A stretch of 64,000 nt of DNA from an uncultured Verrucomicrobiae bacterium. GTDB lineage: Bacteria; Verrucomicrobiota; Verrucomicrobiia; Chthoniobacterales; JAFAMB01. The notes below the pieces were generated by a model. It made no database searches, was not told the DNA's origin, and saw nothing but the letters and a program-made list of their open reading frames with translations. The position numbers and the translations under genes are program-made. The stretch's first letter is position 1; each line of letters begins with the position of its first letter. Below are positions 11,059-45,237 of the stretch, in pieces. Location of the stretch: contig CAVXLD010000003.1 in the NCBI GenBank assembly GCA_963762565.1, positions 480,001-544,000 of the forward strand, given 5' to 3'.

Positions 11059-11132
<74 letters not shown>

Positions 11133-11946: not shown

Positions 11947-11949
11947 ATC

Positions 11950-13562: not shown

Positions 13563-13648
13563 TAAATCTTCAACACATTAACAAGCCTTACAGCGGCCTG
13601 GCAAAGGGTCGCTGACTTCAAGTCTCACATCTTGACGGGTAATGCGGA

Positions 13649-13678: not shown

Positions 13679-13734
13679 ACCGTCAGCGCGTCAGGCGGCT
13701 GCCGGACCGGCAACGGACGCAGGCGCAAAGACTT

Positions 13735-13947
13735 CTAGTCTTCCGGAACGAGCTGGACTCCGTAGAAGGTGCTGCCACCGTTGAGCGTGGCGCTTGCCGG
13801 GATCACCCCGTTGGCGTTGATCCCTGAGGTATAAGCAACGTGGTATCCGTCCGTGGAACTGTGCAGCTTATCTAAAATGTACCAATGACCGTCCTGACAA
13901 AGGTAACCATTCGCAGTGGCGTAGTCGTTATCTTTGCCCGCAGGGCC
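13735..13947 (-). pseudogene. 3' fragment of a secreted repeat protein (HAF-repeat-like C-terminus), truncated at a REP unit
   Basis: Minus-strand frame ...GYLCQDGHWYILDKLHSSTDGYHVAYTSGINANGVIPASATLNGGSTFYGVQLVPED*; 144 bp duplicated at 27946-28089. Confidence 0.55.
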
Positions 13948-14126
13948 AAAAGGGGTCAGTCAACAATTTCTGACAGTTTGACTTCGTGTTCGTACTCGGC
14001 GAGCAAGTTGATCCGGCCGAGGTCAGGTTCTCAGCATTTCAGAATCGGCATTGTCGCCTAAAACGCCGGCGCCCCGATCAGTTAATCGGGATCCGACGGA
14101 TTCTGTCAGAATTTGTTGACTGACCC
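13948..14126 (+). mobile_element. RAYT-associated REP/MITE unit (~180 bp)
   Basis: Left arm AAAAGGGGTCAGTCAACAATTTCTGACA, right arm TGTCAGAATTTGTTGACTGACCC; internal sequence shared with units at 15693 and 26428. Confidence 0.85.
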
Positions 14127-14785
14127 ATTGGTCAACCAGGTGTCGGTTGTCATCGTCTTCTCCAAAGCTGGAACAATCTCAGCAACGGTTCACACTAACC
14201 TTCTTCGTGGATCAAAGCCGTCTGCCTTTGAGCGAGCGGATTTCAGTGCTGGCGGCGGCACTTCTATCATGGCACCGCAAATCAGATGGACCGTCTTGTT
14301 AGTAGGTAACGCTGTCGGGAGGCGTGCGGCAGCTAGGTTTTCACGATGACAGCGCTCTGGCCGGTGGCTCTAGGAACGACCGCAGGCTACGGCACGATAG
14401 GCGGGACCTCGACAAAAAGAAAATCCCTAGCGACTTTGTGGGGCCAGGGAGGGGGTTTCTGTAGCGGCTGACCGACTACAAATTCCACGCACCACCTATC
14501 TCGTCAGGCTCTTACTGACAAATGTACCGGACGGGCCATAGTGATTTGCCCACCCTCAATTAAGATAGCACGAACGGGTCTATAACTGTTTCGAACTCTC
14601 CGCATTCATTTAATCGAGCAACACAATCGAAATTGCCTGAACAGAAATCCTTTAAAGCATCGACGGCTAATTCTCGAAATGGGCCACAGTATTTTTTCAC
14701 GAAAGAGTCGGATATGTCCCAAAACAGTACGACTCGTTCGTCAATGTGTTCTTTATAGTAAATTCGCGCATCATCACCTGAATAG

Positions 14786-15394
14786 GTGTTCGATGTGCCT
14801 TGGCGTGATGGTGTCGACATCACCAGCCAGACCATCTTGGAGCGGCGAGCATTGTTAGAACGCATCATAAGGCCGGGGCCTGGAATCCAGCTTGGCACTT
14901 ATGTCCAGAATGAAGGAAAAGCGCTGTTTCAACTGGTTAAAGAGAAGGGGATGGAAGGTATAATTGCCAAACGAAAAGAAAGCATTTACCGCCCAGGGAA
15001 GCGAAGCCCCGATTGGCTTAAGATCAAAGCTCGGTTACAACAGGAATTCGTTGTCGGTGGATTTACAGCACCCAAAGGCAGCCGAAAGCATCTAGGCGCG
15101 GTCGTTATCGGCGCTTACACTGGAGGAAAGCTCCGGCATTATGGCTATGCTGGCTCCGGCTTCAGCGAAAAGGGATTGAAGGAAGCCGTTGAGCGAATGA
15201 ACCCCTACTTCACTGATAAGTCTCCATTCGTAAATCCTCCAAACATCAAAGAGAAAATCCAATGGGTGCAGCCCAAGCTTGTTTGTGAAATTGAGTACGC
15301 AGAATTGACGGATGATGAGCAGTTGCGACAGACAACGTTCTTGGGCTGGCGGGACGATAAGAAGCCTAAAGAGGTAGTGCTGGAACGCCCGTAA
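14786..15394 (+). pseudogene. ATP-dependent DNA ligase (LigD/LigC-type), N-terminally truncated
   Basis: Starts at motif IIIa (FD); has EGIIAKR...YRPGKRS..WLKIK and the OB fold; lacks the KxDG adenylation motif. Confidence 0.85.
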
Positions 15395-15546
15395 TCGCTT
15401 TTAGTGCTGAGTGACAGCGCCAGCCGAAGTCTGCCTCCTTACCGAATACCGACCGTGCGGCCGTTGCCAGCTTCCCCAGGCCTGTCACGCCACTCGCATC
15501 ACAGACCCAGTGAGCAGATTACGATCATGTTCGCGGCTCCCTACAG

Positions 15547-15684
15547 TTAATCGCTTAAACGAATGCCTGCTTCCTGAACTTCTTGGTATGGCAATAGCCA
15601 CATTAGGGACTCGTCGTGAAGGTCGACCACATCAATCCGATTATTGAACGAGTCGCGAAAAGCGCACCGAAATCCGGGAATTAG
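15547..15684 (-). pseudogene. Duplicated 3' fragment of the VOC gene at 25960-26370
   Basis: 138 bp nearly identical to 25960-26097; ends immediately before a REP unit. Confidence 0.85.
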
Positions 15685-15692
15685 AGTGAGAC

Positions 15693-15802
15693 AAAAGGGG
15701 GCAGTCAACAATTTCTGACAGTTTGACTTCGTGTTCGTACTCAGCGAGCAAGTTGATCCGGCCGAGGTCGGGTTCTGTCAGAAATTGTTGACTGACCCCT
15801 TT
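15693..15802 (+). mobile_element. RAYT-associated REP/MITE unit (110 bp, internally shortened)
   Basis: GTGAGAC + AAAAGGGGGCAGTCAACAATTTCTGACA ... TGTCAGAAATTGTTGACTGACCCCTTT + CGCTTTCTGCA. Confidence 0.88.
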
Positions 15803-16756
15803 CGCTTTCTGCAGTTTCTGCGTATTGAAACGTTTGACGATTACCAGGCGGGGAATGGTGTTGTGCAGGTTCTGTTTCGGAATGCTGACGAGGAAAATCC
15901 TTATATCGTGACGATCAACACCACAAGAGGAACGCAAACGAGCGTTGCCTCACGTATCCAAGGCGAGCTTTCCGAAGGGAGTAATGATTCGATTTTGATC
16001 AAGCCAAATATGATGCCTATGTGACCGGTAGTATCTTCTAGCTGCCGTCTTTCTTGATCAATTTCCCGGCGACGTAACCGAACGCTAGCACCGGATACAA
16101 CTGCGCTCTTAAACGATTCTAGAGCGTTGGTGAGCTCGTCTAGGGGAACGTGTGAAAACGAGTGACGACTTCGCCCACTTACAGCACCAGCCTTGGCTTC
16201 GGATCAAAAGCGAAGGCATTTGCGTACCTATCGACTGATGCCAACCACACTTTCCTGCGCTCCCCGGCCCATTGCAGGTTGTTGGCTATCTGAATTGCCA
16301 AACCTAAGATATCGACCGCTGGCCTACCGCTAGTGCCGATACTGTAGGGTAAGGCTTTGAATTCTCCGCTCGTCACTCCACTAGAATAGCCCAAGCCTCG
16401 ATCTTTAGCTAAGGACTTTGCGATTTGAATGTTCGCTCACGGAATTAAAAATCAAAGGGTACTGAACTAGCTGGTCCAGCATCTCTTTGGAGACTTCTAA
16501 AAATCGAGGCTCTCAAATACCTTTCTCCGTAGCTCTTCGTTGAGCCGATCCAGGTCGTCACGCTGGCCTTCAAAGATTAGCTGCATCAACGTCTTAGGTT
16601 CTGCCGTTACCGGCAGCCGATGTCTTCAAGTTCGACGTGAACCAGAGTGATTTCACGCAAGGGTTTGTCGCGTGCGTCTGTGATCGTGCTGGCCAAGTGG
16701 ATTAAAAACCCAATCTGGAATTCAGCGCCTAATCGACGACCGGCTGCGATCTTTGG

Positions 16757-17284
16757 GTGATGCGTGCCGGGTTTTCCCTTTATCGTTACGTAATACCTGT
16801 AATTGCCGTCTGTTTTGCCGTCATTAGCACGCTATGGCTAGGGCCAGCGCTAAAGTATAGTTCCGCTATCTTCTTTTGCTCCGTGATGTTGAGCAGCTGG
16901 TATGGTGGGCTTTTGCCTGGTCTTTTTGCCGCCGTGCTATCATGGCTCGCTCTGGATTATTATTTCATCCCACCGATTGGTTCCCTTGCCATGAAGCCGG
17001 AGGAAGTGCCTACGATGATCATCTTTGGCGCTGCGGCTTGTTTCATCAGTTGGCTAAATAGCGGTGCCAGGAGGGTGAGAGAGCCGCTTCGACAGGACCG
17101 AGAAATTGAATCCGGCCTGCTGGGTATTGTGGTAAAATTCACCCTAGCTGTCTTACTATCAGTGGCATCCTGCGCCGCAGCCGTCACGACATCGATTCGA
17201 TCCGACTTCTGGCTGACTATTAGTTTCGCCAGCTGTTGCTCAGCCGTCTTTTTAATCATTTTGGCATCCCGAGATTTGCTCTAG
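16757..17284 (+). CDS. Membrane protein with a DUF4118/KdpD-type transmembrane sensor domain, no kinase
   Basis: VMLSSWYGGLLPGLFAAVLSWLALDYYFIPP pattern. Confidence 0.7.
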   Translation: MMRAGFSLYRYVIPVIAVCFAVISTLWLGPALKYSSAIFFCSVMLSSWYGGLLPGLFAAVLSWLALDYYFIPPIGSLAMKPEEVPTMIIFGAAACFISWLNSGARRVREPLRQDREIESGLLGIVVKFTLAVLLSVASCAAAVTTSIRSDFWLTISFASCCSAVFLIILASRDLL

Positions 17285-17695
17285 CTGTTTCTTGATGAGG
17301 CTGCGGTCTCGATCAATCAAGCCAGTCCCCCCGGATTTTCGCTTTAGGAAATCATTGATGTTAGCCACGCTCTCCTTCCGGCCAAAGCGCTGTGGTGTCA
17401 TGAGCAGAAACGCAACATCCTGAAACGATGTTTGCAGCCCAGAGTGCTCGAAAGGTCGGGTTGCGTAATGCAAACCAAGTTGACGTTCTAATCATAGAAA
17501 CAGCTCAGACGCTTTTAAAGTCAATCCCTTTACCTCAGTCATGAGAGGGCGTTTGAAAAGTCTTAAGCTGGGCAGGCTTTTTTGGGGTCAGATCATTCCT
17601 TACCGAGATCCAGAATTAGAGTGCTATGGCGATGCTAGCTTTGGTTTTGGGGCAAGGTCAACTTGAGCCTATGAGTACATTGGAGGCGCAACGGT

Positions 17696-17826
17696 ATGAG
17701 TGGACGGTTCCCTGTCGTCTTTCTGGTCGATGTGGACAATACCTTGCTCGATAACGACCACATTCAAAACAACCTTTGGGAGCATCTCGAACGCGAGTTC
17801 GGCGCAGCTTGTCGGGACCGTTACTG
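17696..17826 (+). pseudogene. HAD-superfamily hydrolase, N-terminal fragment
   Basis: Motif I VVFLVDVDNTLLDND; similarity apparently lost after ~44 codons. Confidence 0.65.
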
Positions 17827-18507
17827 CGTCAACAGCATCAAACTAGCGCATAGTGAGCCATCCCCAGCTCATTCATCGCGAATTCTTAGTCGACCCGTGG
17901 CACTTCAAGCCTGCCTTTCGTACTCTGAAAACCGGGAACGGCGACGACAGGCAACCCGAAGATGTTGTCCATCGTTGGATTCGATACACGATGGGGCTTG
18001 GCCAATTGTAGTGCCTTGGTGCCTAAAATAGCGTCCCTCCGCCATCGGGCTCTAGAGTCAGCGCTATCTTAGTGTGCCCAAATCATCGCGCTTGCATGCA
18101 TCGCAAACATGTCGGCAAACTTCTTGGCGTGCGCGTCATCGGTAATGCCGTGGTTCTTGGCAGCCAGAAGTTACTGCTGGCGGCAGCACCGAACCGTTTC
18201 GGCGTACCACGGACAACGCGGATAGCTCCAAAGCAGGAACTAGGGCGATAAATTCACGGTTACACCGCAACAGATGCTTGACCACTTAGTGCGCGATCGC
18301 CAGCGAACCGAGGAAAAGCTAGCTATTCAGCGGCAAATAAACACTGAGAGAAAGCGAGCGCTTAAAGCGCGGATTGAACTGGCTGCGGCTAAGAAAGAAA
18401 GTTTGTTCTCAACCAAGTTTTCGTCTCGCCGGCCAGCCTCTGCTCGCAACTTTCTGGCCGTTACCGCGTCGACGCGAAATCGCGATGGTTTTCTCGCGCT
18501 TGCCAGG

Positions 18508-18771
18508 TTAAGGCGGGTAATGCTCTGCATCGTACCCTTCCGCGTAGCGCATCGCCTGTATGATAGGGTCGGCCTCTTCGGTTGGATCGAAAAACTTGTG
18601 CTTCGGATGATCGTCAGGAAAAATGTCTAATACCACTCCACCGCCTGCTATGAGAGTGATCTGGTATTTTGGCGTGTTCCCGGCTTGTCGATACGAACAG
18701 AGCCGTTCGCCATCCCTGTCGCCCTGATACCAAAATGCGTCGTTGACAACAATTTGAAGGTGTTTTGCCAT
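18508..18771 (-). CDS. Small hypothetical protein
   Basis: MAKHLQIVV... preceded by a GGGGG SD-like sequence; protein-like composition. Confidence 0.5.
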   Translation of the reverse strand: MAKHLQIVVNDAFWYQGDRDGERLCSYRQAGNTPKYQITLIAGGGVVLDIFPDDHPKHKFFDPTEEADPIIQAMRYAEGYDAEHYPP

Positions 18772-19228
18772 AATGCCCCCAAGAGAATCGGCGTCAGTGA
18801 TGGTTAAAGTCGCTGACGCTTTAGCGTGCAAAATACTGGCACAGAAGAGGGAGCGCAACGGAGGAGGTGAGTTGTTCCATACTACTTCCGCTAGCCATAA
18901 TTACAATAGCTTCGTAACCTCCTAGTTTCGTGCACCTTTTTTTGCTTGCAGAGGCAATTCGAGGGAGAAAAACAAGTAAACTAGCACCATACATTATTTT
19001 TGTTATGAGTTTTCTGCCTTGCAATTCTGGAGTTTATCAGAATTATAGGCAAGCCAAATCACTCGGTCAGCGCGCTCGTTCTTCCGGCACAAGAAAAAGG
19101 AAGAAAAAGAAAGCAAAGGGAATAATAAACGATAAAAAACAAGCAAAATAAAGAAACGTTATCTTATTGTGTTGTTACTTCTCGTGCAATCGCCCTTAAG
19201 TTAACGAACACGGAGCGGAGTGAACGTG

Positions 19229-19259
19229 AAAGGGGTCAGTCAAATTGACTGACCCCTTT
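19229..19259 (+). repeat. Minimal REP palindrome AAAGGGGTCAGTCAA-A-TTGACTGACCCCTTT
   Basis: Perfect 15-bp arms. Confidence 0.92.
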
Positions 19260-19369
19260 CGCAGTCAATACGCCGAGTGACGTACAGGTGGAACGTTGAG
19301 CGAGGCAGGAGAAATCTCGACACGTCCATTCTAGTTATGATAAACAGGCTGGCTCGGTCGCCATCCAGA

Positions 19370-20038
19370 ATGAGATTCTATCAATATATCTCGGATTCCA
19401 AGGTTGACATGTTGCTGCCGCAGATCCCGCTGAAGGCGAAACAAAAGATCACCGCTGAAATCGGTTTTGATATCAAGATTTTGACGGCAAAACTAAAGAC
19501 TGAACGCGATAGCCTGGATGATCGGGTTAGCCGCCTTCTCGTGGTAGAGCGATATTTGAGAGAGAGCCAACGAATAGGCTCATTGATTGAGCCGGCTCCC
19601 TGGGTTTCTGGTGCCGAAGAGGTGTCTGTTACAATGCCCGCTCCTGGTGCGGTTGTGTTCGTCGGCGACAAAGGAGATGCCTATTTTCTGCTAACTGGCT
19701 CCGCCGACCATCTCATTGGTTCTAAACCGGACCGTGACTTCGGAGGTTCTTCGTTCTCAATGTTGGCTATGATTCTTCATCACGTTATGTTGGATTGGCA
19801 CGACTTTATTGTCCACGATATCGAGGGAAAGGAAGAGAAGAAACCCCTGATTGAAACTTCGTCTCGGACAGAACGGGAGATTCTTGAGCGTGTCGCTGAA
19901 CGCTTTCCCATAGGAAATGTTCGAACGCGAGTAGAGTTTCTGGTGCGAAGACTATTGGTGGGAACGATTGACGGTAAGGAAGTGTTTGTAGGAACTCCAC
20001 TCTACGTCGCCCAGACGGACGACGACTACGTACACTGA
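19370..20038 (+). CDS. Hypothetical protein resembling the DUF7019/SAVMC3_10250-like family
   Basis: N-terminal MRFYQYISDSKVDMLLPQI, internal LTGSADHLIG, C-terminal VEFLVRRL...GTPLYVA; family recalled, not searched. Confidence 0.65.
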   Translation: MRFYQYISDSKVDMLLPQIPLKAKQKITAEIGFDIKILTAKLKTERDSLDDRVSRLLVVERYLRESQRIGSLIEPAPWVSGAEEVSVTMPAPGAVVFVGDKGDAYFLLTGSADHLIGSKPDRDFGGSSFSMLAMILHHVMLDWHDFIVHDIEGKEEKKPLIETSSRTEREILERVAERFPIGNVRTRVEFLVRRLLVGTIDGKEVFVGTPLYVAQTDDDYVH

Positions 20039-20090
20039 ACTTCGTCGGCGCGCCGAATCGGTCAAACATAACCGGTTAGCGGAGGAGAAC

Positions 20091-20122
20091 AAAAGGGGTC
20101 AGTCAATTTGACTGACCCCTTT
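20091..20122 (+). repeat. Minimal REP palindrome followed by CGCTTTCTGCA
   Basis: AAAAGGGGTCAGTCAA-T-TTGACTGACCCCTTT. Confidence 0.92.
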
Positions 20123-20135
20123 CGCTTTCTGCACC

Positions 20136-20456
20136 CTACGGCTTTTCGATCATGTAGTAAGACTTAAGGCGGCCATCTACGAACTCAAAACGATAGAATT
20201 GTTTGCTAAGATTCAAAGATCGTAGCATGCCGCTGTACATCGCGGCCCGAACTTGATCAGTTGCCAAATCGTAGATCAAAATCTCAGCGCCATCGTGAAG
20301 TTCCCTGCCATAGGGTTCGCCAAGAATGCTTATAACTTCGTCCTCGCTCATTCCGGCATGCACCGTCCCCAGGCTTGTGACAGGTGTCGCGCACCCTGTC
20401 AGGATCACCAGAGCAAAAGGCAACGCCAAGAACGGTAAGCGCAAGAGCGTTTTCAT
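20136..20456 (-). CDS. Lipoprotein, SmpA/BamE-like
   Basis: Signal peptide with lipobox LTGC, then GMSEDEVISILGEP and F.F.DGRLKSY; ATG at 20456 chosen as start. Confidence 0.72.
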   Translation of the reverse strand: MKTLLRLPFLALPFALVILTGCATPVTSLGTVHAGMSEDEVISILGEPYGRELHDGAEILIYDLATDQVRAAMYSGMLRSLNLSKQFYRFEFVDGRLKSYYMIEKP

Positions 20457-20545
20457 ACGATCCTGACATCGTACCAAGTTCGAAGCCTGCTTGTCGCGCT
20501 CTTCCTTTCCCAACGTTAAGTGCTTGGCTGCAGCAAAAGTGAGAC

Positions 20546-20574
20546 AAAAGGGGTCAGTCAAATTGACTGACCCC
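20546..20574 (+). repeat. Minimal REP palindrome with GTGAGAC left flank and CGCTTTCTG right flank
   Basis: AAAAGGGGTCAGTCAA-A-TTGACTGACCCC. Confidence 0.9.
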
Positions 20575-20783
20575 ATTCGCTTTCTGTTTTGCAAAACGGA
20601 CAACGCCGCGGCTTGGCAATCCCTCGCCGACTAACCATTTGCCATACGCAGAAACTGTTACAACTGTTCGCAATACATATTGGAGACCGTGCCCTGTTAG
20701 CGAAATACTTCCCAAGGATTAGTAGGGCGGATGCGAGCATCTCAGCGCTCGCCGGACTTCTAGACCTTGGCCGGCGAGCGTCT

Positions 20784-21017
20784 TTATTTTGAGGAGGCAA
20801 AAGCCCACTCCTCAGACCTCCAACAACGCCGCGCACGCTTGATGCGATCCGGTCGCGCCGGCCGGCTGGCATGCGAAAGCCACGCATAGAGCGTCTGGGC
20901 TCTTACGCCAAGCCTGCGAGCCAGTTCGGTCGTCGTGTTGTAGTCGAGGCGAAGAAAATCACAGAGACGCCCGACAACCGCGTCTCGTTCGTCCTTCGTG
21001 TTCCGTTTCCGCGGCAC
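20784..21017 (-). CDS. Small helix-turn-helix (XRE/Cro-like) protein, possibly degenerate
   Basis: TTTELARRLGVRAQTLYAWL..SRP. Confidence 0.55.
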   Translation of the reverse strand: MPRKRNTKDERDAVVGRLCDFLRLDYNTTTELARRLGVRAQTLYAWLSHASRPARPDRIKRARRCWRSEEWAFASSK

Positions 21018-21062
21018 GATTCGGGCGAATTCTTGGATAACTTGGAACGAAAATCAAGAAAT

Positions 21063-21107
21063 GACCGGCGGAAAGGTTCCTGCTCACCTTATCCGCCGGT
21101 CTTTTTT
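21063..21107 (+). terminator. Rho-independent terminator-like hairpin
   Basis: GACCGGCGGAAAGG ... CCTTATCCGCCGGTC followed by T6. Confidence 0.55.
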
Positions 21108-21479
21108 GGGTGGATAGGGCTTCTGCGACCTACCTATGGCTCCGTTCATTAGAGCCTGCAATTACACCTCGGTACTAACGGACTAGTGCTTTGGGGCTAG
21201 GAGAGGGTGTTCCGCGCCTACAAAATCGGCGTCCTGCATTTAGCGCTCATACCGCCGCGCGGCGGCCTCGTCCGACCCCAACCAAACGCCAATCCTTTAA
21301 CCTTTGCGCCGGAGAAAGACCGGTTGCTGAAGGTTGCGGAGGCCGTGGCCTACTGCCATGTGTCGCGCACGTGGATCGACGCCGCGCTGACAACCAAACG
21401 AGCTCCGACACGTCAAGCTTGGGCCGAATACGCGCCGGATCCCGGTACAGGCGGAATAAGCCCAAAACTTGCATCCGAC

Positions 21480-22593
21480 AAAAGGGGTCAGTCAACAAAT
21501 CTTGACAAATGGTATCATGTGACGAACTGAGGGGGTAATGCCGAGACAGGTTCGAGTTGAGTATCCTGGAGCCTTTTATCATGTGATGGCGCGAGGGGAC
21601 CGAGGCGAGAGCATCTTTGTGGATGACAAGGACCGAGAGCAGATCCTGCGAAGTTTGGGCCAAGTCTGCGCGAAGACGGGATGGCGGATCCATGCCTGGG
21701 TGTTAATGAGTAACCACTACCACTGGCTAGTGGAAACGCCGCAACCCAACTTGGTCGCAGGAATGCGCTGGGTACAGAACACCTATACCCGGCGGCTAAA
21801 TCATCGGCATAAGCTCTGGGGTCATGTCTTTGGCGGCCGCTATAAAGCGGTTCTGATCGAGAACGACCTGGATTCAGACTACTTTGCAAACCTTTGGGAT
21901 TATATCCATCTAAACCCAGTTCGAGCCAGGTTGGTCGATCCGAAGGAAGGGGTAGGTTTATTGGACTATCCCTGGAGCAGCCTTACCCAGGTGTATTCCG
22001 CCGGGCCCAATCGCCGGCCAGCATGGTGCGCGACTGAGCGCTCTTTTGCCGCCTTCGGCCTCAAAGACACCGTCAGTGGGCGAAAAGCATTAATTGAGCG
22101 TTTGGAGCAACGCGCCATCGCTGAGGAGGCAGAAAAGTGCGGTTGGATAGTGCGAGATGGTCAGTCGCTGAATAGTACGCTGCGTCGTGGCTGGTACTGG
22201 GGCGGTGAAGCGTTTAGGCAAAAGCTGTTGGATTTGGCGGCAGAACCATTGAGCAGGCTACGTAATCGCAACCGGCGTGCCACTCGTCAATGGCGCGATC
22301 ACGCCCAAGTTAGCGCCAGCGACTTAATTCGCCAGGGACTCGAGGCGCTTGGCCTGAGCGAGGACCAACTTAAAGCCAGTAAAGGCAGCGAAACCCGGAA
22401 GGTGAGTCTCGCATGGGCGATAGCCCGTTCGACCACGATGAGTCAAAGCTGGATTGCCGATCGCCTTAACATGCGCAGCGCGGCAAATGTTAGCCAGCAG
22501 GTGCGGCGATTCGAAAGAGAGCTGAAAGGTCAGAGCGACTCGCGAATTAAAGGATGGGTCAAGATTGTCAAGAATTGTTGACTGACCCCTTTT
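21480..22593 (+). mobile_element. RAYT/Y1-transposase element bounded by 28-bp inverted repeats
   Basis: AAAAGGGGTCAGTCAACAAATCTTGACA (21480-21507) and TGTCAAGAATTGTTGACTGACCCCTTTT (22566-22593), 27/28 complementary. Confidence 0.88.
21538..22581 (+). CDS. REP-associated tyrosine (Y1/HUH) transposase with C-terminal helical/HTH extension
   Basis: YHVMARG, IHAWVLMSNHYH (HUH), GHVFGGRYK, YIHLNPVRA (catalytic Tyr), YPWSS; C-terminal SQSWIADRLNM; stop codon lies inside the right IR. Confidence 0.92.
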   Translation: MPRQVRVEYPGAFYHVMARGDRGESIFVDDKDREQILRSLGQVCAKTGWRIHAWVLMSNHYHWLVETPQPNLVAGMRWVQNTYTRRLNHRHKLWGHVFGGRYKAVLIENDLDSDYFANLWDYIHLNPVRARLVDPKEGVGLLDYPWSSLTQVYSAGPNRRPAWCATERSFAAFGLKDTVSGRKALIERLEQRAIAEEAEKCGWIVRDGQSLNSTLRRGWYWGGEAFRQKLLDLAAEPLSRLRNRNRRATRQWRDHAQVSASDLIRQGLEALGLSEDQLKASKGSETRKVSLAWAIARSTTMSQSWIADRLNMRSAANVSQQVRRFERELKGQSDSRIKGWVKIVKNC

Positions 22594-22601
22594 GACCCCT
22601 T

Positions 22602-22714
22602 GGTGCGGCGATTCGAAAGAGAGCTGAAAGGTCAGAGCGACTCGCGAATTAAAGGATGGATCAAGATTGTCAAGAATTGTTGACTGACCCCTTTTCCTGT
22701 GACTGACCCCTTTT
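22602..22714 (+). repeat. Tandem duplication of the transposase 3' end plus right IR, followed by partial IR stutters
   Basis: 22602-22695 matches 22500-22593 with one mismatch, then GACTGACCCCTTTT recurs. Confidence 0.85.
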
Positions 22715-22869
22715 CCTGTGCTTTTCCTGGGTCCCCTTAGTTCGCGAAGGAAAGGACGAGACCCGGATAGAGAGCGGGAATGCGGTGCAACCAGAGTGCA
22801 CTAGGCTAATTTGGTGCAGCTCGACATCTGCCTAATTCTTCCACGTGAGCTGCGCTTACAGAGACTGCC

Positions 22870-25641
22870 CTAATCTCTTGGCGCCAATTCAGCTAACAGT
22901 GTTTTATATCGTGGATCCTCACGTAGAGGATCCCACATGGGATCGAGCTTCAAATTGCTGTAGTAAATGCCGCTCGGCGTTTTCGTCAACGAACTTAACG
23001 TTTCAAAAGCGAGGTCAGGCTCACCGGTCCAAGCATAAACAACCGCTAAATTTATCAGAAGACCCGGCCCATCCACTGCGTCCCTGCTGATCGGCAACAT
23101 ATCTACGGCACGTTTGCCTTCCGCAGTCGCGTCTTGTTTCTTCCCCAAGAGAGCATCGACCACAGCCAATTGGGTGAGCAACTTAGCTTTCGCATCCCCT
23201 TGTGACTCCTGGACCCTCTGATTTAATTGTTCCCGTGTTTCCGCAAAGCCAAAATTGTCGTCCGGCTGTTGTCCCTGCATTCGGGCAATAAGAATGAGAT
23301 AACACCCAGCCGGAACCGGCACCTCCATATAAGCAAAACCACCTTCGTCATCACCGCCCTTCAACTCCTCGACCAGTCTAATTGCCTGGTGCCAATCACG
23401 ATCATATAACGCGCAGCCCAGGCGCCAGGTGACAACATCCCGATCCTCTGCTATCGACAGCGGAAGCGCCGCAAGCGCCGAACGCAACGCAGTACCGTCT
23501 CCTGTGTTGGCTAAGGTTACATAATACGCCTTTAGAACCTTGAGTTCTGGGTGATCGGGAGCGAGATCGATCGCCCGATCGTACGCCTCTCCGGCGGCAG
23601 AAAGCTGACGCGCCATCTGAAGCGAATTTGGCAACTCAGTCATCGGATTGCGTGGGTCGAGAGTGATCGCTGCTTTCAATTCCTGAATTGCTTTTTCAAA
23701 GTTGCCCTGCCGGCGATCCATCAATGCCTGGAGAGTCATCACCTCAGTGTTATTGGGCATACCGCGCCTGGCGATGGCTAGCTGCACGCGCGCCCTTTCG
23801 TAATCACGATAGCTGACATAAAGGTGGTGGGCATACGCATAGTGCACTTCTGGAAGGTCGGGTTGCAAGCGCAGCGCGTTGTTCACCGCTGTATCTCCCA
23901 AGGAGCGTCGATTAGGAGTCGGATCGTGCCTATAAAGACCATCGTGCACGTAAGCCTCCGCGCAGTAGGCGAGCGTGAACTTCGGGTCGAGTTGTACCGC
24001 CTGATCAAGTAAATTTATCGCATCGCGAAGTGGCTTTTCATAGCCCGTCAGGACAGCGTTAACATCTGCATAGTCGATCAATTCCTTTGCCCGTAGGTAA
24101 AGATCGTACGCTTCGAGATTTTCTGTTAGCTTCGCTTCAATGCTCTGCTTCTCTTGCGGAGAAAGCGTAGCGGTCAACTTGGTGGCGATGGTCTGAGCTA
24201 CTTCGCTCTGAATGGCGAAAATATCAGTCAGATCCCGGTCATAGCTCTCGGACCAGAGAGCTTGGTCTGTTAGAGCATTGACAAGCCGAATTGTAATTCG
24301 AACGCGATTATCTTCTCTTCTCACGGTACCCTCGACAACATTAGCTACTCCGAGCACGCGAGCGATTGACCGCAGGTCCCGCGCTCCAGTAGGGCGAAAT
24401 GTCATTACCGAGGTCCGACTGATTACCTTGAGTTGGGATACTTTGGCGAGGCTGGATAGAATCTCGTCGTGAATACCGTCTGCAAAGTAACTGTTGCGGG
24501 GACCGCGGCTAAGCGTCTCAAATGGCAAAACGGCAATACTTCTCTTTCGAGCTCTGGGTACAGGCTGTTCTTTTGCTTGAGAGCCAAGCCTTTGCGTAGG
24601 ACTCGCCAACAGCTTTCGTCGTCCAATAGTGCGCCTACCCTTCGCGGACGTTTTCGATAGCGCGTTCGAGAGTTCTTTCGGGGTCTGAAAGCGCTTTGTA
24701 GGATCTTTCTCAAGAAGCCTCTCGATGAGATCAACCACCGGACCGTGGAACGCGGCAAGTTGCTCAATGGGGAAGCGTTTGTATAGATGTTGGTACATAA
24801 GCTCAGGCACAGATCCCGTAAATGGAACTTTGTCGGTGAGCATGTTCCAAAGCACTATGCCCAGCGAATAAAGGTCAGAACGGATATCTACTGCGAGGCC
24901 GGCAAATTGCTCTGGACTTGCGAACGCTGGTGTTCCAATAAAAGCGCCCGCCGTGGAAACAACTGCATCGGCTGGCTCGATAGCTACCTTGGCGAGGCCA
25001 AGGTCGATAATCTTCGCACTGGTAGATCCCCCGTTCTTCATTGCAACCATGACATTGCTAGGTTTGATGTCGCGGTGAACGAGACCTCTTTCATGGATCG
25101 CGCCCAAACCTGCTGCGACTTGAGTTGCGATTTCCAATGCGAGCTTTACTTCAAGCCTGCCAGAGCGTTTGATGAGATTCTCCAGAGTCTCACCCTCTAC
25201 AAACTCCATCGCGTAGAAGTAGCTAGTGACGCTCTTTCCGAGGTGAAATACAGAAGCAACGTTCGGATGCCGTACACTTGCCGCCGCCCGTGCCTCTCGT
25301 ACGAATCGTCGCCGGGCTGATTCGTCGCCAAGAAGCCGCGAGTTGATCACCTTCAACGCCACGACGGTTTGGAGATTCACATCGATCGCCTTATAGGTCA
25401 CTCCCATAGCGCCTCGACCTAGTTCAAGCGGCTTTCCATCCTCGCGAGTAACAAGCTGGTAGTGTTCAAACCGAAAATCCGGCGACAAACCAGTCGGGTC
25501 TAAATGTAACTCGGTGGTCGCGGCTTGGTCGGCGAGGGCACCCCGGAAAGCGCAAACCGGACAAAGCCCTAAGCCGTCGACAATTTGCGCCCCACAAATG
25601 GGGCAGACGCGTCTCGATTCTTGTTCCACAAACTCAACCAC
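22870..25641 (-). CDS. Hanks-type Ser/Thr protein kinase with TolB-like domain and TPR repeats
   Basis: LGRGAMG, VALK, HRDIKPSN, DLG, GTPAFASPEQ, SDLYSLG; SIAVLPF...YFADG...LKVISRTS; C-terminal WDPLREDPRY. Confidence 0.93.
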   Translation of the reverse strand: MVEFVEQESRRVCPICGAQIVDGLGLCPVCAFRGALADQAATTELHLDPTGLSPDFRFEHYQLVTREDGKPLELGRGAMGVTYKAIDVNLQTVVALKVINSRLLGDESARRRFVREARAAASVRHPNVASVFHLGKSVTSYFYAMEFVEGETLENLIKRSGRLEVKLALEIATQVAAGLGAIHERGLVHRDIKPSNVMVAMKNGGSTSAKIIDLGLAKVAIEPADAVVSTAGAFIGTPAFASPEQFAGLAVDIRSDLYSLGIVLWNMLTDKVPFTGSVPELMYQHLYKRFPIEQLAAFHGPVVDLIERLLEKDPTKRFQTPKELSNALSKTSAKGRRTIGRRKLLASPTQRLGSQAKEQPVPRARKRSIAVLPFETLSRGPRNSYFADGIHDEILSSLAKVSQLKVISRTSVMTFRPTGARDLRSIARVLGVANVVEGTVRREDNRVRITIRLVNALTDQALWSESYDRDLTDIFAIQSEVAQTIATKLTATLSPQEKQSIEAKLTENLEAYDLYLRAKELIDYADVNAVLTGYEKPLRDAINLLDQAVQLDPKFTLAYCAEAYVHDGLYRHDPTPNRRSLGDTAVNNALRLQPDLPEVHYAYAHHLYVSYRDYERARVQLAIARRGMPNNTEVMTLQALMDRRQGNFEKAIQELKAAITLDPRNPMTELPNSLQMARQLSAAGEAYDRAIDLAPDHPELKVLKAYYVTLANTGDGTALRSALAALPLSIAEDRDVVTWRLGCALYDRDWHQAIRLVEELKGGDDEGGFAYMEVPVPAGCYLILIARMQGQQPDDNFGFAETREQLNQRVQESQGDAKAKLLTQLAVVDALLGKKQDATAEGKRAVDMLPISRDAVDGPGLLINLAVVYAWTGEPDLAFETLSSLTKTPSGIYYSNLKLDPMWDPLREDPRYKTLLAELAPRD

Positions 25642-25959
25642 GGTTTTTCGGACAGGAGAGTAATATATTCCCGTTTATCTACCGTCCTTCCAATCCGTAC
25701 TCGGTTCGTCCGAAATCTTCAAAGCTGATCAAGAGACAACGCGTTCTAGACGAGAAAAGCTGCAAATGTCGTTTTTGATGGTCGCATTTTCGTTTCAAGC
25801 GCTGTTTGCTACGGAAAACGGCAAAGACTCTTACAACCAAATAGAACTGGCTGCTCTGATCAGGGAGGAAGAGGGCCAAGATATGGACAAACTTCCCGTG
25901 CCTGGCGAAGTGGAGCGTTATACTGGTATTCGGTTTGATCTCGGATGCCTGCGTAAAGC

Positions 25960-26370
25960 TTAATCGCTGAAACGAATGCCTGCTTCCTGAACTTCTTGGT
26001 ATGGCAATAGCCACACTAGGGACTCGTCGTGAAGGTCGACCACATCAATCCGATTATTGAACGGGTCGCGAAAAGCGCACCGAAATCCGGGAATTAGTTG
26101 TAACCCGTATTTCTGCGTGACTTTGTCTCTCACCTCCGCGAGTTGCCGCTCATCCCGAACAATTAGGCCAAAATGCCAGCCGCCCTTGTCGCGAACCTGA
26201 TCAACCTGGGTCATAGCGAGAAACTGATGATTCCCGAGCTTGAAAAACGCATTACCTTCGCCACGCGACTTAAGTTTAAGTTCGAAGACGTCCTCGTAAA
26301 ACGCTTGCGCCTTTGCAAGATCATCAACCTCGATCGCCACGTGATTGCACCCATAGACTTGAACGCTCAT
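25960..26370 (-). CDS. VOC/glyoxalase family protein
   Basis: NHVAIEVDDL..A..FYEDVF, HFGL, FRDPFNNRID. Confidence 0.88.
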   Translation of the reverse strand: MSVQVYGCNHVAIEVDDLAKAQAFYEDVFELKLKSRGEGNAFFKLGNHQFLAMTQVDQVRDKGGWHFGLIVRDERQLAEVRDKVTQKYGLQLIPGFRCAFRDPFNNRIDVVDLHDESLVWLLPYQEVQEAGIRFSD

Positions 26371-26427
26371 AATCCTGCATTCTGCGCCAATGGCTCTTTG
26401 ATCTCCATGCTTTTGAGTTAGCGAGAC

Positions 26428-26536
26428 AAAAGGGGCCAGTCAACGATTTCTGACAGTTTGACTTCGTGTTCGTACTCGGCGAGCAAGTTGATCCGCCCGA
26501 GGTCAGGTTCTGGGCATTTCAGAATCGGCATTGTCG
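26428..26536 (+). mobile_element. Left portion of a RAYT-associated REP/MITE unit (no right arm found)
   Basis: GAGAC + AAAAGGGGCCAGTCAACGATTTCTGACA plus the same internal sequence as 13948-14056. Confidence 0.8.
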
Positions 26537-26721
26537 ATCAAGCATCGCAGGCATTTTTGTCGCCAGAGCGAGATTCAAGGCGAGGGCGCAGGCGAATATC
26601 GGAAGCCGAGGTTGAAAGCGTTCCAGCCGTTGCCCATCGACGAGCGATCTCAATAAGGCCGGTCAGGCAAGGAGTAGCGAACCTTGCTGAGGGCTTCCTG
26701 GACTAACGCGGAGTAGTACTT

Positions 26722-26988
26722 ATGATCATCACGCTTTTTGAAGGACAGCGCTCTGAGACCTACGAAAGCCTCTCTGAGGCCGCCGATGCCGCCAAGAAGT
26801 GGTATTCAGATTTAGGGGAAGACGCTCCTCCGTGGGATTATGAGATTCAAACCTATGATGATTTGCTCGAAGCGATAGAAGAACACAAGAAGCGAGTTGC
26901 TTCTTGGGTGGCGAATAGGGACGACTATTACCCGAAGCCTCGGCTGACAGTTATTGGTATCGACGGCACTCCAGCAAAAGGTCGGTAA
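26722..26988 (+). CDS. Hypothetical protein
   Basis: ATG preceded by GGAG; next ORF starts 3 nt after the stop. Confidence 0.6.
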   Translation: MIITLFEGQRSETYESLSEAADAAKKWYSDLGEDAPPWDYEIQTYDDLLEAIEEHKKRVASWVANRDDYYPKPRLTVIGIDGTPAKGR

Positions 26989-26991
26989 TTA

Positions 26992-27294
26992 ATGGGTGAA
27001 ACCGCAGAAGCCATAGTAATGACCTGTATAGAAAACCCTCACAGCGAAGTGGAGGGCCTGGAATCCCGAACATTTTCAGTTCACGCAGTGCTATGCGTGC
27101 CCAAGGGCTTCGAAGAAATATATGTGACCAAAATTATTGAGCCGAACGAGATCGCGAGACTCGTGGCTGCGGAACCAATCCTAATGGAACGCGATGAGTT
27201 CTACTTTAAGACGAAAGCCAAAGTCGAACCGGATACCAAACTTAAGATCGAGATTTCTCTAGCCGGGGAATCCGATCAGCCGTCATCGAACTGA
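26992..27294 (+). CDS. Hypothetical protein
   Basis: Operon-like spacing; protein-like composition. Confidence 0.55.
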   Translation: MGETAEAIVMTCIENPHSEVEGLESRTFSVHAVLCVPKGFEEIYVTKIIEPNEIARLVAAEPILMERDEFYFKTKAKVEPDTKLKIEISLAGESDQPSSN

Positions 27295-27476
27295 TACCTA
27301 AGTCTCCTTGGTAGGAACACATTTGCGCGGCACTCAGAGTATTAAGCTATTCCGAACTCAGAACGTTGACTGGGTGAACGAATTTTGGTCTGTAGACTCA
27401 AACAGAGCCGCGGCAGCTCCAACGGCCGCCTCTCCTGTTATCATCGATCCTTCGGGGATCGATTTGTTTTCACACG

Positions 27477-27749
27477 TTAATCGTGTATTTCAATCTTGAT
27501 CTTGTGACCGGTCTGGAGATCGCGGTAGGTTGCTTTGTCACGGTCTCCCTTGAGCAAATGGTACCGCGTGCCGATCGCACGGATCCCGTCCTGGTTTATA
27601 ATAATCTGAGATGGCACTGTCTTGATCGTCGTGGTCGTAACCACTTGTCCAATCGGCTGCATCGTAGATTGGATCTCGTCTCCTCTACTCACTGTGAAAA
27701 AGCAAAGGCTGAGGACGGCTATTGCTATGAAGTGACTTACTCTGTTCAT
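27477..27749 (-). CDS. Small secreted hypothetical protein
   Basis: N-terminal signal-peptide-like hydrophobic stretch. Confidence 0.5.
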   Translation of the reverse strand: MNRVSHFIAIAVLSLCFFTVSRGDEIQSTMQPIGQVVTTTTIKTVPSQIIINQDGIRAIGTRYHLLKGDRDKATYRDLQTGHKIKIEIHD

Positions 27750-27945
27750 AATATTCGAGTGTTTGAAAGAGCCCTAGCGTGTCGGCGTAGAAAACCTACA
27801 CCTCCATTCGGGCGTTCGCTTTCAAACCGCAGGCTGGATTTACGGCCTTGACGCGAAATAAACCTGGGCGCTCTTTTCGGCGTCGCATTTTCCTAGGGAA
27901 ACGCTGCGGATTGCACCCATTTGCTATCGGAACCCGATTTCCAAG

Positions 27946-28089
27946 GGCGCAAAGACTTCTAGTCTTCGGGCACGAGCTGGACTCCGTACAAGGTGCTGCC
28001 ACCGTTCAGCGTGGCGCTTGCCAGGATCACCCCGTTGGCGTTGGTCCCTGATGTATAAGCAACGTGGTATCCGTCCGCGGAACTGTGCA
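27946..28089 (-). repeat. Second copy of the 144-bp gene-end fragment at 13722-13865
   Basis: About 90% identity by eye; encodes ...HSSADGYHVAYTSGTNANGVILASATLNGGSTLYGVQLVPED*. Confidence 0.85.
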
Positions 28090-28176
28090 TCCGACCAATG
28101 CTTCTTTTGCGGTTTGAACCTTTGAAGGCAGTCAGAACGAGGGGCAATTTACTGGCTCGCAATTATTACCGGCTGT

Positions 28177-28437
28177 TTGTTAGCATTCCAAACGATGCCA
28201 ATTCGTTATAGAGAAGTTCTTGAGCACATGAAGGGCTTTCTAGCCGCGTACCCTTTAGGTTTTCAGGCTGATGAGACCGGCCAGCGAAACATTGTCGCGG
28301 ACAGAAACGGTTACCGGCTCGGAGAATCGGTCGATCCAAAGGTAGTCGAAGAAATGGTTAAAGGCGAAAACGAGGCTTTCACGAATAGCATGGAGCGTAA
28401 ATCTTTTCGCCAATTGCTCGCAATGTTTGCTGGATGA
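28177..28437 (+). CDS. Hypothetical protein
   Basis: ORF with an internal ATG (MPIRY); no recognisable motif. Confidence 0.4.
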   Translation: MLAFQTMPIRYREVLEHMKGFLAAYPLGFQADETGQRNIVADRNGYRLGESVDPKVVEEMVKGENEAFTNSMERKSFRQLLAMFAG

Positions 28438-28509
28438 CGAGCCATCATCTTCCAGCCAATTGCTTATTCGTTCCCAGATAAAGAACGGGAAACAGAGGGC
28501 CGTTGAGAC

Positions 28510-28525
28510 AAAAGGGGTCAGTCAA
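28510..28525 (+). repeat. Solo left REP arm (GAGAC + AAAAGGGGTCAGTCAA)
   Basis: Exact 16-mer match with the GAGAC flank. Confidence 0.8.
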
Positions 28526-28633
28526 GGGATCAGTACTGCGACCAATACGGTCATCGCGACCGTAGGATAATCATTGACAGGATCGAGTCTTAACCAGCAA
28601 CAGATTTTCGCGATGTTTGTTCGCCTACCGTTC

Positions 28634-28980
28634 TCACCGCATCCTGGCCCGATAACAGAAGCCGATGATGATAATGACTAAGGGCAAGAACAACGCGACC
28701 GGCGTCCACACATGCATCATCGTGAGCACAATCTGGTTGAGGACAAAAAGCGCGCAGTAAAGATAAAGGCCCCACAGCCGCATCAACCAGAAGCCGATGA
28801 GCGAAACCAGTCCTACTAACGTGCTAACCGCCAGAAGGGTGGATACCAAGAGCCGATCTGCGACGCGTAGCTGGAAAAAACCAGAGGAATAGCAAATAGG
28901 ACACCGATAAAGGCGAGGATACAGATAATCGTAATTATGACAGGCCGGCCCTTCGCGGCCGCAGAGGGAGATTCACTCAT
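28634..28980 (-). pseudogene. Small four-helix membrane protein with a frameshift near 28835
   Basis: MSESPSAAAKGRPVIITIICIL...SWYPPF continues in another frame as LAVSTLVGLVSLIGFWLM...; span of 347 bp is not a multiple of 3. Confidence 0.6.
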
Positions 28981-29069
28981 GAGCTGGTAATAGGTATTGA
29001 AGGGGACTAGGCTCGAGGAATTAACAGGTGCGCTCTCTCGTGGCGAGCCTTTTCCGAGCCGTCCAAGCG

Positions 29070-29209
29070 GCGGTCAAAATGCAATCGGGACAGGCACCAT
29101 CGGGGGTATGCTTTCCGCCACGGTCTTGGCCATCTTTTTTGTGCCGCTCTTTTTCGTCGCCACTTTGCGGTTGTTGAGAGTGAAACCGAAGACACTTACT
29201 AGCAAGTAA
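29070..29209 (+). pseudogene. RND efflux permease (AcrB-type), C-terminal fragment
   Basis: [28 protein letters not shown] corresponds to the last TM helix of HAE1 RND pumps. Confidence 0.8.
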
Positions 29210-29239: not shown

Positions 29240-29612
29240 CAGACTGTCGAAAAACGCAGGTGTCCGTCCCGGAGGGACAAGGTAATAGCAGCCTGGCCTG
29301 GAGGGGAGCCGCTTTGGAACGAGCCTAAAGATCTCGTGATATTCTATCCATTGCGAGGAACGCAAAATAGGGTGTTAAACAGGCGGCTCCCGGGAATTAC
29401 CGCACGAATGTTTTGTCCATAGTTCCGTTCGGAGATTGTTCATCCGGGCGTCGTGCCAACAAACCTAACGCGCGTTGAAACGTTCCCGGGAGCCGCCTGT
29501 TTAAGGAGATTTCCGGTCATGCACGCGTCCAGGCAAATATCGCGGGGTCTTCTGTTACGTGCCAAAGCGGCTCCCCTCCAGGCCAGCAGACATGCGTTTT
29601 TTCAACAGTTTG
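29240..29612. mobile_element. Non-autonomous composite MITE with IS5/IS1182-like ends and CTAG flanks, containing a nested-IR unit (29297-29582)
   Basis: CAGACTGTCGAAAAACGCA ... TGCGTTTTTTCAACAGTTTG; CTAG at 29236-29239 and 29613-29616. Confidence 0.7.
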
Positions 29613-36041: not shown

Positions 36042-36134
36042 TTAACAAGCAACATTTAAGGTGGATTGGTTGTGACTTGTTAAGATATGACCCTGACATG
36101 CCTCCCCAATTCGGCCAGCATTCCATTGCGTCAA

Positions 36135-44951: not shown

Positions 44952-45237
44952 CCAGCGCCTGGAGGGGAGCCGCTTTGGCGCGAAGCAGACGGCCTCGCAA
45001 TAGTTGTTTCAGCGCTCAATCCGGCTGAGAAATGTCGCAACAGGCGGCTCCCGGGAATAACCCAGGGCAATGTTTTATCTGTGGCTCGGGATCGTTTACA
45101 CCTGGCCACAAAGCTGCGAAGCGCTGGATTATTCCCGGGAGCCGCCTGTTTTTGCACGTTTCGGCCGGATTAGTGTTGGGACGAATTCGCGAGGGTGGAA
45201 AGGTAATGCGCCAAAGCGGCTCCCCTCCAGGCGCTGG
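44952..45237. repeat. Nested-IR MITE-like unit (~285 bp)
   Basis: Outer arms CCAGCGCCTGGAGGGGAGCCGCTTTGGCGC / inverse; inner arms AACAGGCGGCTCCCGGGAATAA / inverse. Confidence 0.82.

Follow-up and report, generated by a model that had tools for sequence, protein, structure and literature searches.

A TIRtron within a polar array of sequences derived from its own ends, in a tRNA-linked variable region of a Verrucomicrobiae genome

Introduction

How does a short palindromic sequence come to be repeated, always in the same orientation, around a single transposase gene? The question is raised by a stretch of 64,000 nucleotides from an uncultured Verrucomicrobiae bacterium of the Chthoniobacterales (lineage JAFAMB01; GenBank assembly GCA_963762565.1, contig CAVXLD010000003.1, positions 480,001 to 544,000), which is called the window below. 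A palindromic motif recurs there over 14.6 kb, and among its copies lies a gene for a RAYT-like nuclease of the Y1 HUH type. The original prediction took the palindromes for RAYT-type repetitive extragenic palindromic (REP) sites that bracket single cargo genes, and proposed that the transposase uses them to capture and reshuffle gene cassettes in the manner of an integron. The analysis reported here leads to a different answer. The locus belongs to the published TIRtron/TIRYT class, TnpA-Y1 subclass 2.1, and it probably consists of a TIRtron together with a locally amplified, polar set of mini-elements derived from its own ends, all lying in a variable island. Present evidence does not sustain the claim that this is a new kind of cassette system working without an integrase.

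The transposase and its ends

The complete TIRtron occupies 21480-22593 on the + strand, a unit of about 1.1 kb with a left terminal inverted repeat (TIR) at 21480-21508, the TIRYT gene at 21538-22581 and a right TIR at 22565-22593. The TIRs, of about 30 bp, begin AAAAGGGGTCAGTCAAC and are 96.7% complementary over 30 nt (21479-21508 against 22594-22565), and the consensus GGGGWSAS is present at both ends of the unit as GGGGTCAG. Taken singly, the two ends fold no better than shuffled sequences (z 0.38 and -1.73), and they are therefore terminal inverted repeats and not REP hairpins. At the sites read in the window, the arms have no adjoining GTAG or CGTC tag. A terminal sequence of 25-30 nt, GGGGTCAGTCAACAAWTCTTGACA, is common to the window unit, to a second copy of the unit on contig C5 and to the units of orthologues in three other genomes (G012, G038 and G026); ends of this kind also border many soil metagenome contigs. 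Since this terminal sequence borders the window gene, the C5 copy and the orthologues at 75% and about 48% identity, the palindromes are indeed the resident transposase's own ends, as had been supposed. The label of RAYT-type REP has to be dropped, because single ends do not fold, the GTAG tag is absent and the copy number is low.

TIRtrons, as set out in the available portions of the paper by Di Nocera, De Gregorio and Rocco (2013; PMC3733652), are RAYT-like genes with TIRs that share GGGGWSAS, and copies of the TIRs occur singly, as dimers or in groups. Quentin et al. (2018; PMC6006769), in the corresponding portions of their text, equate TIRYT with TnpA-Y1 subclass 2.1 and describe long members with a C-terminal helix-turn-helix (HTH) of the Bac_DnaA_C, HTH_23 or HTH_28 type. 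The likeness of the present locus to these accounts extends to the RAYT-like Y1 HUH gene, the TIRs with GGGGWSAS, the long protein with a predicted tail of the DnaA_C type, and the TIR copies, single, dimeric or grouped, in other parts of the genome.

The gene encodes a protein of 347 amino acids (aa), a RAYT-like Y1 HUH nuclease by its match to PF01797 (E 1.5e-9). The HYH motif (H60-Y61-H62) and Tyr122, within YIHLNP, are invariant across eight homologues, and the window gene is unbroken and retains every catalytic residue. An AlphaFold model of the protein (mean pLDDT 74) has two parts. Residues 1-218 align with E. coli TnpA-REP (4er8) at Z 16.6 (root-mean-square deviation 2.2, 152 aligned residues), and the model matches IS608 TnpA at Z 13.9. 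Residues 258-347 align with domain IV of DnaA bound to a DnaA box (3pvp, Z 10.8; 1j1v, Z 10.7). A family profile of eight sequences reaches DnaA at E 0.016; the Pfam family Bac_DnaA_C has no match to the window protein and matches only two of the eight homologues (E 0.022). As modelled, then, the protein is a RAYT-like Y1 HUH core followed by a predicted C-terminal DNA-binding domain resembling DnaA domain IV. It scores 68.9 bits against the curated RAYT equivalog NF047646, below the cut-off of 80, and 18.4 bits against the IS200 equivalog NF033573, far below the cut-off of 55. Orthologues are found at 75% identity in another genus (G012) and at about 48% in other families (G038 and G026).

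The genome holds two copies of the gene, one in the window and one on C5. The C5 copy is disrupted by an 86-bp inversion, and an extra right end lies 0.9 kb upstream of it. The window unit also has more than one right end: a tandem duplicate of its last 94 bp, including the right TIR, follows at 22602-22695 (+ strand; 98.9% identical to 22500-22593), and this is followed in turn by a short partial copy of the right end at 22699-22716 (+ strand). In one soil-metagenome run (X2) a 30-nt omission lies within 22602-22716.

Distribution of the motif

In the window, GGGGTCAGTCAA has 16 matches with at most one mismatch, every one of them within 13952-28525, against a chance expectation of 0.28; none of 100 shuffles reached 16. 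Scanning the whole 6.1-Mb assembly with the 14-mer AAGGGGTCAGTCAA (at most one mismatch) gave 30 matches, compared with 4 for a reversed control, and 16 of the 30 are in the window array. Counted as loci, 8 of the 16 in the genome fall in 14.6 kb (Bonferroni-scaled binomial 5.5e-15). Three statements of the original prediction are borne out by these results: the motif is present at every position that it listed, as reading of the sequence confirmed, it is restricted to the array within the 64 kb, and it clusters around the transposase. Further arms that had not been recorded are the right arms at 14116-14130 and 15788-15803, the duplicated right end at 22602-22695 and the partial copy at 22699-22716. 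The eight loci outside the window are on C1 (one), C2 (one), C5 (two), C7 (three, all inside 6 kb) and C10 (one).

Clusters of the motif, looser than that of the window, are also found in three relatives (G012, G016 and G020) and in 12 of 121 metagenome loci; the sites in relatives are spaced 5-25 kb apart. Three genomes of the same genus (G003, G004 and G005) have 8-9 copies each of the TIR 14-mer, with 0-3 for controls. The exact 25-nt palindrome occurs in one other species among 185,579 species genomes, a collection that possibly does not include the present genome. A 16-mer scan puts the number of metagenome stretches with a match at an estimated 650 or so, and in many of the stretches that were inspected the match runs on into the same TIR.

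A recurrent feature of unrelated copies of this TIR family is a tandem duplication or triplication of the 11-12-nt TIR tip (GGGTCAGTCAA). It is seen at metagenome loci L045, L049, L054, L055, L071, L073, L092, L124 and L153, and in the present genome at C10 258329-258353 and C7 630236-630261. These duplications may be a footprint of end processing.

Gene-less derivatives of the ends

The seven other sites in the window make up a deletion series of gene-less derivatives, comprising two elements like miniature inverted-repeat transposable elements (MITEs), three fused-end palindromes and two left-end remnants. The longest is a MITE-like TIR element of 183 bp at 13948-14130 (+ strand), whose arms (13948-13976 and 14103-14130) are 92.6% complementary and whose single strand folds at -43.3 kcal/mol (z -5.1); a copy with 84% identity lies at C7 636202-636398. 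The second, a 111-bp MITE at 15693-15803, is the 183-bp element minus 65 internal bp. Its arms (15693-15721 and 15775-15803) are 96.4% complementary, it folds at -36.4 kcal/mol (z -7.2), and with its leader AGTGAGAC and trailer CGCTTTCTGCAG it spans 15685-15814 on the + strand. It adjoins a small gene truncated at the 5' end, in which homology to an intact paralogue and orthologue begins at 15815.

In the 31-bp palindromes the first 16 nt of the left end are joined to the last 16 nt of the right end. One is at 19229-19260, with no strand assigned (-18.9 kcal/mol, z -7.7). Another, with leader GAGAAC and trailer CGCTTTCTGCA, lies at 20086-20133 on the + strand (core 20091-20122; -16.4 kcal/mol, z -6.3), and the third, with the leader AGTGAGAC again and the trailer CGCTTTCTG, at 20538-20586 on the + strand (core 20546-20577; -12.7 kcal/mol, z -4.6). 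Across the doublets as a whole, single-stranded folding energies thus span -12.7 to -43.3 kcal/mol, and the z values span -4.6 to -7.7. The remnants are a 110-bp left half of a MITE at 26428-26536 (+ strand; leader AGCGAGAC, no right arm), which is 95.5% identical to 13947-14056, and a solo left tip at 28505-28525 (+ strand; leader GAGAC plus AAAAGGGGTCAGTCAA), identical in 22 of 22 nt to 20540-20561.

Two further observations concern the surroundings of these copies. Alignments of duplicated flanks (28401-28620 against C7, and 13691-13960 against 27916-28200) did not reveal a clean pre-insertion site. The possibility that the derivatives are MITEs of a DDE-type transposon was set aside, as the neighbouring DDE insertion sequence (IS; ~11945-13566) lacks the motif and no target duplications surround the elements.

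Leader, trailer and strand

The core of each palindrome is flanked asymmetrically, and the original prediction that these flanks lie on the + strand only was confirmed site by site in the window. GAGAC stands immediately before AAAA-GGGG at 15693, 20546, 26428 and 28510, GAGAAC takes its place at 20091 and CCGAC at 21480, all on the + strand; the right arms that end at 15803, 20122 and 20577 are each followed by the trailer CGCTTTCTG, again on the + strand. Genome-wide, GAGAC is found at 5 of 14 left arms and CGCTTTCTG at 3 of 16 right arms. GAGAC was also considered as a general insertion target and rejected, since no consensus emerges from the left flanks of copies in metagenomes. Leaders are instead shared inside single genomes, with GGTCTATA in four copies of G012 and the 15-nt GCAGCGAGCTGAAAA in two copies of G020. 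Because copies within one genome share their own leader while metagenome left flanks are not conserved, leader and trailer appear, from these sequence comparisons, to belong to the mobile unit rather than to a general target.

The copies also show a strand bias. At the loci of positive skew (C3 +0.056, C7 +0.020 and C5 +0.018), the transposase-sense strand of all orientable copies is the G-rich strand. According to the available portions of PMC5027513, IS608 and ISDra2 are oriented on the lagging-strand template, which is the same orientation.

Genes between the sites

The sites define seven intervals in the window, and their content bears directly on the question of cassettes. The original prediction had described the array as bracketing single cargo genes. 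Exactly one gene was confirmed in each of the two intervals that it had singled out, 19229/20091 and 20122/20546, but the description fails for the array as a whole: the first interval contains pseudogene fragments, the second at least four open reading frames (ORFs), the fifth two small ORFs, the sixth three genes (kinase-TPR, a 111-aa ORF and glyoxalase) and the seventh four small ORFs. The two genes of the single-gene intervals (2 of 7) are convergent. That of interval 3, at 19277-20038 on the + strand, is a DUF7019 gene as first suggested (PF22880, E 1.9e-41); it has a homologue in none of 42 other genomes of the family (E<=1e-10), and its 1-kb bin has the lowest GC of the window, 0.471. 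Interval 4 encodes a 106-aa lipoprotein at 20136-20456 on the - strand, likewise with no homologue in the 42 genomes (E<=1e-5). The earlier description of a BamE-like lipoprotein holds for the lipoprotein, which has the lipobox LTGC, and for its stop codon, 13 bp from the palindrome 20091-20122; the likeness to BamE is only weak (E 0.016; 15.5 bits, where the cut-off is 23.2). The orphan status of the two genes fits acquisition of an island or capture alike.

Of 15 interval proteins, not one is fully duplicated in the genome or adjoins a motif site in 122 other loci that carry the motif (121 from metagenomes and one from a genome). Outside matches are limited to one of DUF4118, lying 5.5 kb away from a site, and one of 34 residues to the ligase. 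An integrase family was not found among 38 window ORFs scanned against Pfam, a set that excludes ORFs below 60 aa and some unsubmitted ORFs.

Population contigs and a 1,065-bp polymorphism

Population data came from contigs of four soil-metagenome runs of one study (X1-X4); the JGI metagenomes gave no close strain covering the region. The reshuffling of inter-site segments that the original prediction envisaged does not appear in them, since wherever contigs of the four runs bridge the sites (20094-21509, 22661-26475 and 26466-29200) the reference order is kept. With no interval gene fully duplicated or found beside the motif in the 122 other loci, and contig order as in the reference, an integron-like reading of the locus is not supported, and the genes between the sites are probably ordinary accessory or decaying island genes.

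The sole dynamic event seen is the presence or absence of a segment of 1,065 bp at 14744-15808 (no strand assigned), which contains a C-terminal fragment of an ATP-ligase gene, a 138-bp copy of a glyoxalase 3' end and the short MITE. The segment has one site-defined edge and is not an intact gene cassette. A joint 14743>15809 occurs in contigs of three of the four runs (X1, X2 and X4, at depths 12.5, 6.63 and 4.7). The two sides have 0 letters in common where they meet, and the flanks agree with the window over 599 letters. In the same runs the 1,065 bp that the joint skips are covered to depths of 3.9-5.1, 3.2-3.6 and 0.7-0.9. On the right the segment ends 6 nt past the right arm of the 111-bp element, where CGCTTT meets CTGCAG. 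CTGCAG remains in the short form, and up to CTGCA it is shared by the trailers at 15803 and 20122. A conserved 95-aa gene, seen on C7 and in G004, is without its first 19 codons in either form. The idea that the 14743|15809 form is a pristine ancestral gene was rejected on these two grounds, the missing codons and the CTGCAG kept at the joint, and for the same reasons the contigs suggest that the short form arose by a loss anchored at the right end and is not a pre-insertion state.

Other features of the contigs are confined to single runs. The first record of run X1 has 573 more letters to the left of 14145, outside the listed pieces. Two joints were found in X3 only. One, 19260/20092, links opposite strands at a depth of 3.9 and has 32 shared letters; the other, 25969>15557, has 46 shared letters at a depth of 4.5. 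Both pass through repeats no shorter than the assembler's word length and so carry no weight as evidence of rearrangement.

Origin of the array

The probable history of the array, a TIRtron that has seeded its surroundings with end-derived mini-elements, can be modelled as follows. The TIRYT would act on the strand bearing the sense sequence of its own gene; the two arms would pair as a hairpin once that strand is single-stranded at a replication fork, and the enzyme would cut a few nt outside the palindrome. With cuts so placed, the leader (AG)TGAGAC and the trailer CGCTTTCTG would travel with the copies, which could explain the polarity. New copies would land near their source in insertion-tolerant DNA, here a strain-variable region of about 30 kb, rich in IS and pseudogenes, behind tRNA-Arg; right ends may occasionally anchor the loss or gain of neighbouring DNA.

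Several points weigh against this account. Each of its mechanistic steps is drawn by analogy with IS608, ISDra2 and TnpA-REP, because the literature that uses the terms TIRtron and TIRYT holds no biochemical test of a TIRYT. For no copy was an empty site, an excision product or a circle junction found in the short-read contigs, which break at palindromes and are unable to reveal circles, starts or absence. The stretch 15547-15777 is a copy of 25960-26097 plus 26420-26512, that is, a flank together with the left part of a MITE; as these copies exceed the element, the array owes at least some of its growth to segmental duplication and not to clean transposition. Solo fragments on C10 and C2 are in negative-skew DNA and have the opposite sense. 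Both genes of the single-gene intervals lack homologues in 42 related genomes, as a capture model likewise predicts. Finally, in five genomes of the same genus (78-95% complete) the best match to the TIRYT is at E 6e-26 and 37% identity, and three of them (G003, G004 and G005) carry the TIR motif with 8-9 matches each. The TIRs of these three could be orphans; alternatively, the gene could have failed to assemble, their metagenome-assembled genomes being 78-84% complete.

Growth of the array mainly by segmental duplication, deletion and homologous recombination in a decaying island, with hairpins that only stimulate slippage and little or no transposase activity, is unlikely, even though duplication has contributed material. 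Flanks are copied between 13722-13865 and 27946-28089 (94%) and between 15547-15684 and 25960-26097 (98%), the latter copies being contiguous with the left parts of MITEs; the right end has tandem duplications at 22602-22716, tip duplications recur in metagenome copies, the copies at 26428 and 28505 are truncated, and the C5 transposase gene is broken by its inversion. What such a process does not account for is that the 31-bp palindromes and the copies on C7 and C1 share only the element and 5-9 nt of leader or trailer, with unrelated flanks, which fits insertion and not duplication of the surroundings. The window gene has also stayed intact with all its catalytic residues, and the 14743>15809 joint, with its 0 shared letters, shows none of the microhomology of slippage. 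Still less probable, indeed barely so, is the idea that the host has co-opted the short palindromes to terminate transcription in both directions, or to insulate island genes from one another, and that they have been kept for this use. Each has a GC-rich stem of 11-14 bp flanked by A-runs and T-runs, the copy at 20546 is terminator-like on both strands, and that at 20091 stands between convergent genes, 13 bp from a stop codon. Against these features, the copies at 19229 and 20546 are upstream of the adjoining genes, terminator-like structures in the region are no more numerous than in shuffles (17 against 18.3), and leader, trailer and clustering would be left unexplained.

It is very doubtful that the palindromes serve the TIRYT as directional recombination sites for the capture, excision and reshuffling of cassettes of one gene each. 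Only two of seven intervals hold one gene and these genes converge, while the rest hold pseudogene fragments or 3-4 ORFs; the 15 interval proteins have neither a full second genomic copy nor a place beside the motif in the 122 other loci; bridging contigs of four runs are in reference order; the polymorphic segment is no gene cassette and has a single site-defined edge; and sites in relatives are 5-25 kb apart. These observations outweigh the attractions of the idea, namely that the sites are polar and clustered beside the enzyme, that two adjacent one-gene intervals hold family orphans (0 of 42 for each), with the window's lowest GC in the DUF7019 bin, that a palindrome pair on C7 (630223 and 631562) also encloses one frameshifted DUF3466 reading frame, and that the population is polymorphic for a 1,065-bp segment bounded on one side by a right end. 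A related proposal, also rather unlikely, draws on that one polymorphism and holds that right ends of the TIRYT are fixed anchors for one-ended events. A cut just 3' of the right end would be sealed to a distant 3' end, and adjacent gene-sized DNA would be lost and possibly carried along and re-inserted. If this were true, dense co-oriented ends would make a tRNA-linked island modular and rapidly reshuffled, as an HUH analogue of ISCR-type mobilisation of adjacent genes, acting on orphans such as the DUF7019 and lipoprotein genes.

Relation to known systems

Compared with the TIRtrons described in the available portions of PMC3733652 and PMC6006769, the present locus has an unusually tight and uniformly oriented array, with 8 loci packed into 14.6 kb about the master copy. 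It also has a lineage-specific asymmetric leader and trailer, and one adjacent segment is polymorphic in nature. The RAYT/REPIN system (Bertels and Rainey 2011, PMC3116915; 4er8, PMC3479197) provides the closest solved fold (Z 16.6) and is similar in that a gene is flanked by its own inverted repeats and accompanied by dispersed, gene-less hairpin doublets. Unlike that system, single ends here are non-palindromic and lack the GTAG tag, and the 16 loci compare with tens to hundreds for RAYT/REPIN. A RAYT gene is single-copy and vertically inherited, whereas the gene studied here is present twice and is patchy among relatives, with a 75% orthologue in another genus. The predicted DnaA-like domain is an addition, and the score against the NCBIfam RAYT equivalog is below its cut-off.

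IS200/IS605 elements (IS608, ISDra2) and their gene-less derivatives share the Y1 HUH chemistry, the strand polarity and the lack of an observed target duplication, and in both cases the active strand is on the lagging-strand template; cleavage outside the hairpin at asymmetric positions would be a further likeness, proposed for the present locus by analogy. They differ in having subterminal hairpins, no TIRs and a TnpA of ~130-150 aa with no tail for binding double-stranded DNA, in contrast to the 347 aa and TIRs here. In integrons, the attC site is a folded single-strand recombination site on which the IntI integrase acts to move cassettes. The present locus has no IntI among the scanned ORFs, no attC architecture and no uniform series of one-gene, co-oriented cassettes. 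One-ended HUH transposition of the IS91/ISCR kind mobilises DNA adjoining one fixed end; the enzyme here is a Y1 protein and not a rolling-circle transposase of the IS91 type.

TIRtrons are very widespread. The locus combines an intact enzyme with a graded set of natural substrates (1.1 kb, 183, 111 and 31 bp), a defined leader and trailer, and a polymorphism ending at a right end, and it is therefore a convenient system for studying the movement of DNA by a Y1 nuclease that has a DnaA-like tail.

Genomic context

The variable region that houses the array is bordered on the left by a tRNA-Arg(CCG) gene at 11059-11132 (+ strand; ARAGORN; Rfam RF00005, 67.2 bits), and synteny with genomes of the same genus continues as far as this gene. 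The tRNA homologue and that of window position ~41.4 kb are separated by 1.2 kb in G003 and by 1.8 kb in G005, in the latter with the opposite relative orientation. Since these homologues are only 1-2 kb apart in the two genomes, the window from 11.2 to 41.3 kb (about 30 kb) is taken to be variable in the species; the listed matches of the other three genomes end at or before the tRNA homologue, which in G004 is near the low end of a contig. The GC of the region is roughly 0.47-0.55, compared with 0.54-0.55 for the contigs. Its gene fragments comprise the ATP-ligase C-terminus, a DUF4118 stub and the copied 3' end of the glyoxalase gene. A search for a defence island was unproductive, as PADLOC returned generic kinase matches only.

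The 1.6-kb DDE IS (DDE_Tnp_1_6 plus DUF772) has two copies in the window, at 11945-13566 and 34415-36045, and others on C1, C5 and C8. At least five copies in the genome are 99-100% identical, and full 100% identity is reached by copies outside the window, which points to recent activity. Copies sit 0.4 kb from the first MITE in the window and 2.3 kb from the TIRtron copy on C5.

An element of ~290 bp, found at 29293-29586 (inverted ends 29293-29343 and 29586-29536) and at 44951-45237, has dozens of copies of 73-87% identity in every genome of the same genus, and several in the present one; it may represent a large REPIN-like family. A pair of small genes that belong to no known family (~86-109 aa and 95 aa) is convergent on C7 (5135-5464, + strand, and 5551-5838, - strand, of locus L030). 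Their window copies are separated (15815-16041 and 28177-28437), each against a TIR end, and the 95-aa gene has 88% DNA identity in two other species of the genus, above that of the flanking DNA. Lastly, a 150-bp stretch upstream of the TIRtron, at 21047-21199, recurs at C7 634415-634566 (94%) and 635083-635220 (74%) and on C4 (83%), and the C7 copies are near the TIR cluster of that contig.

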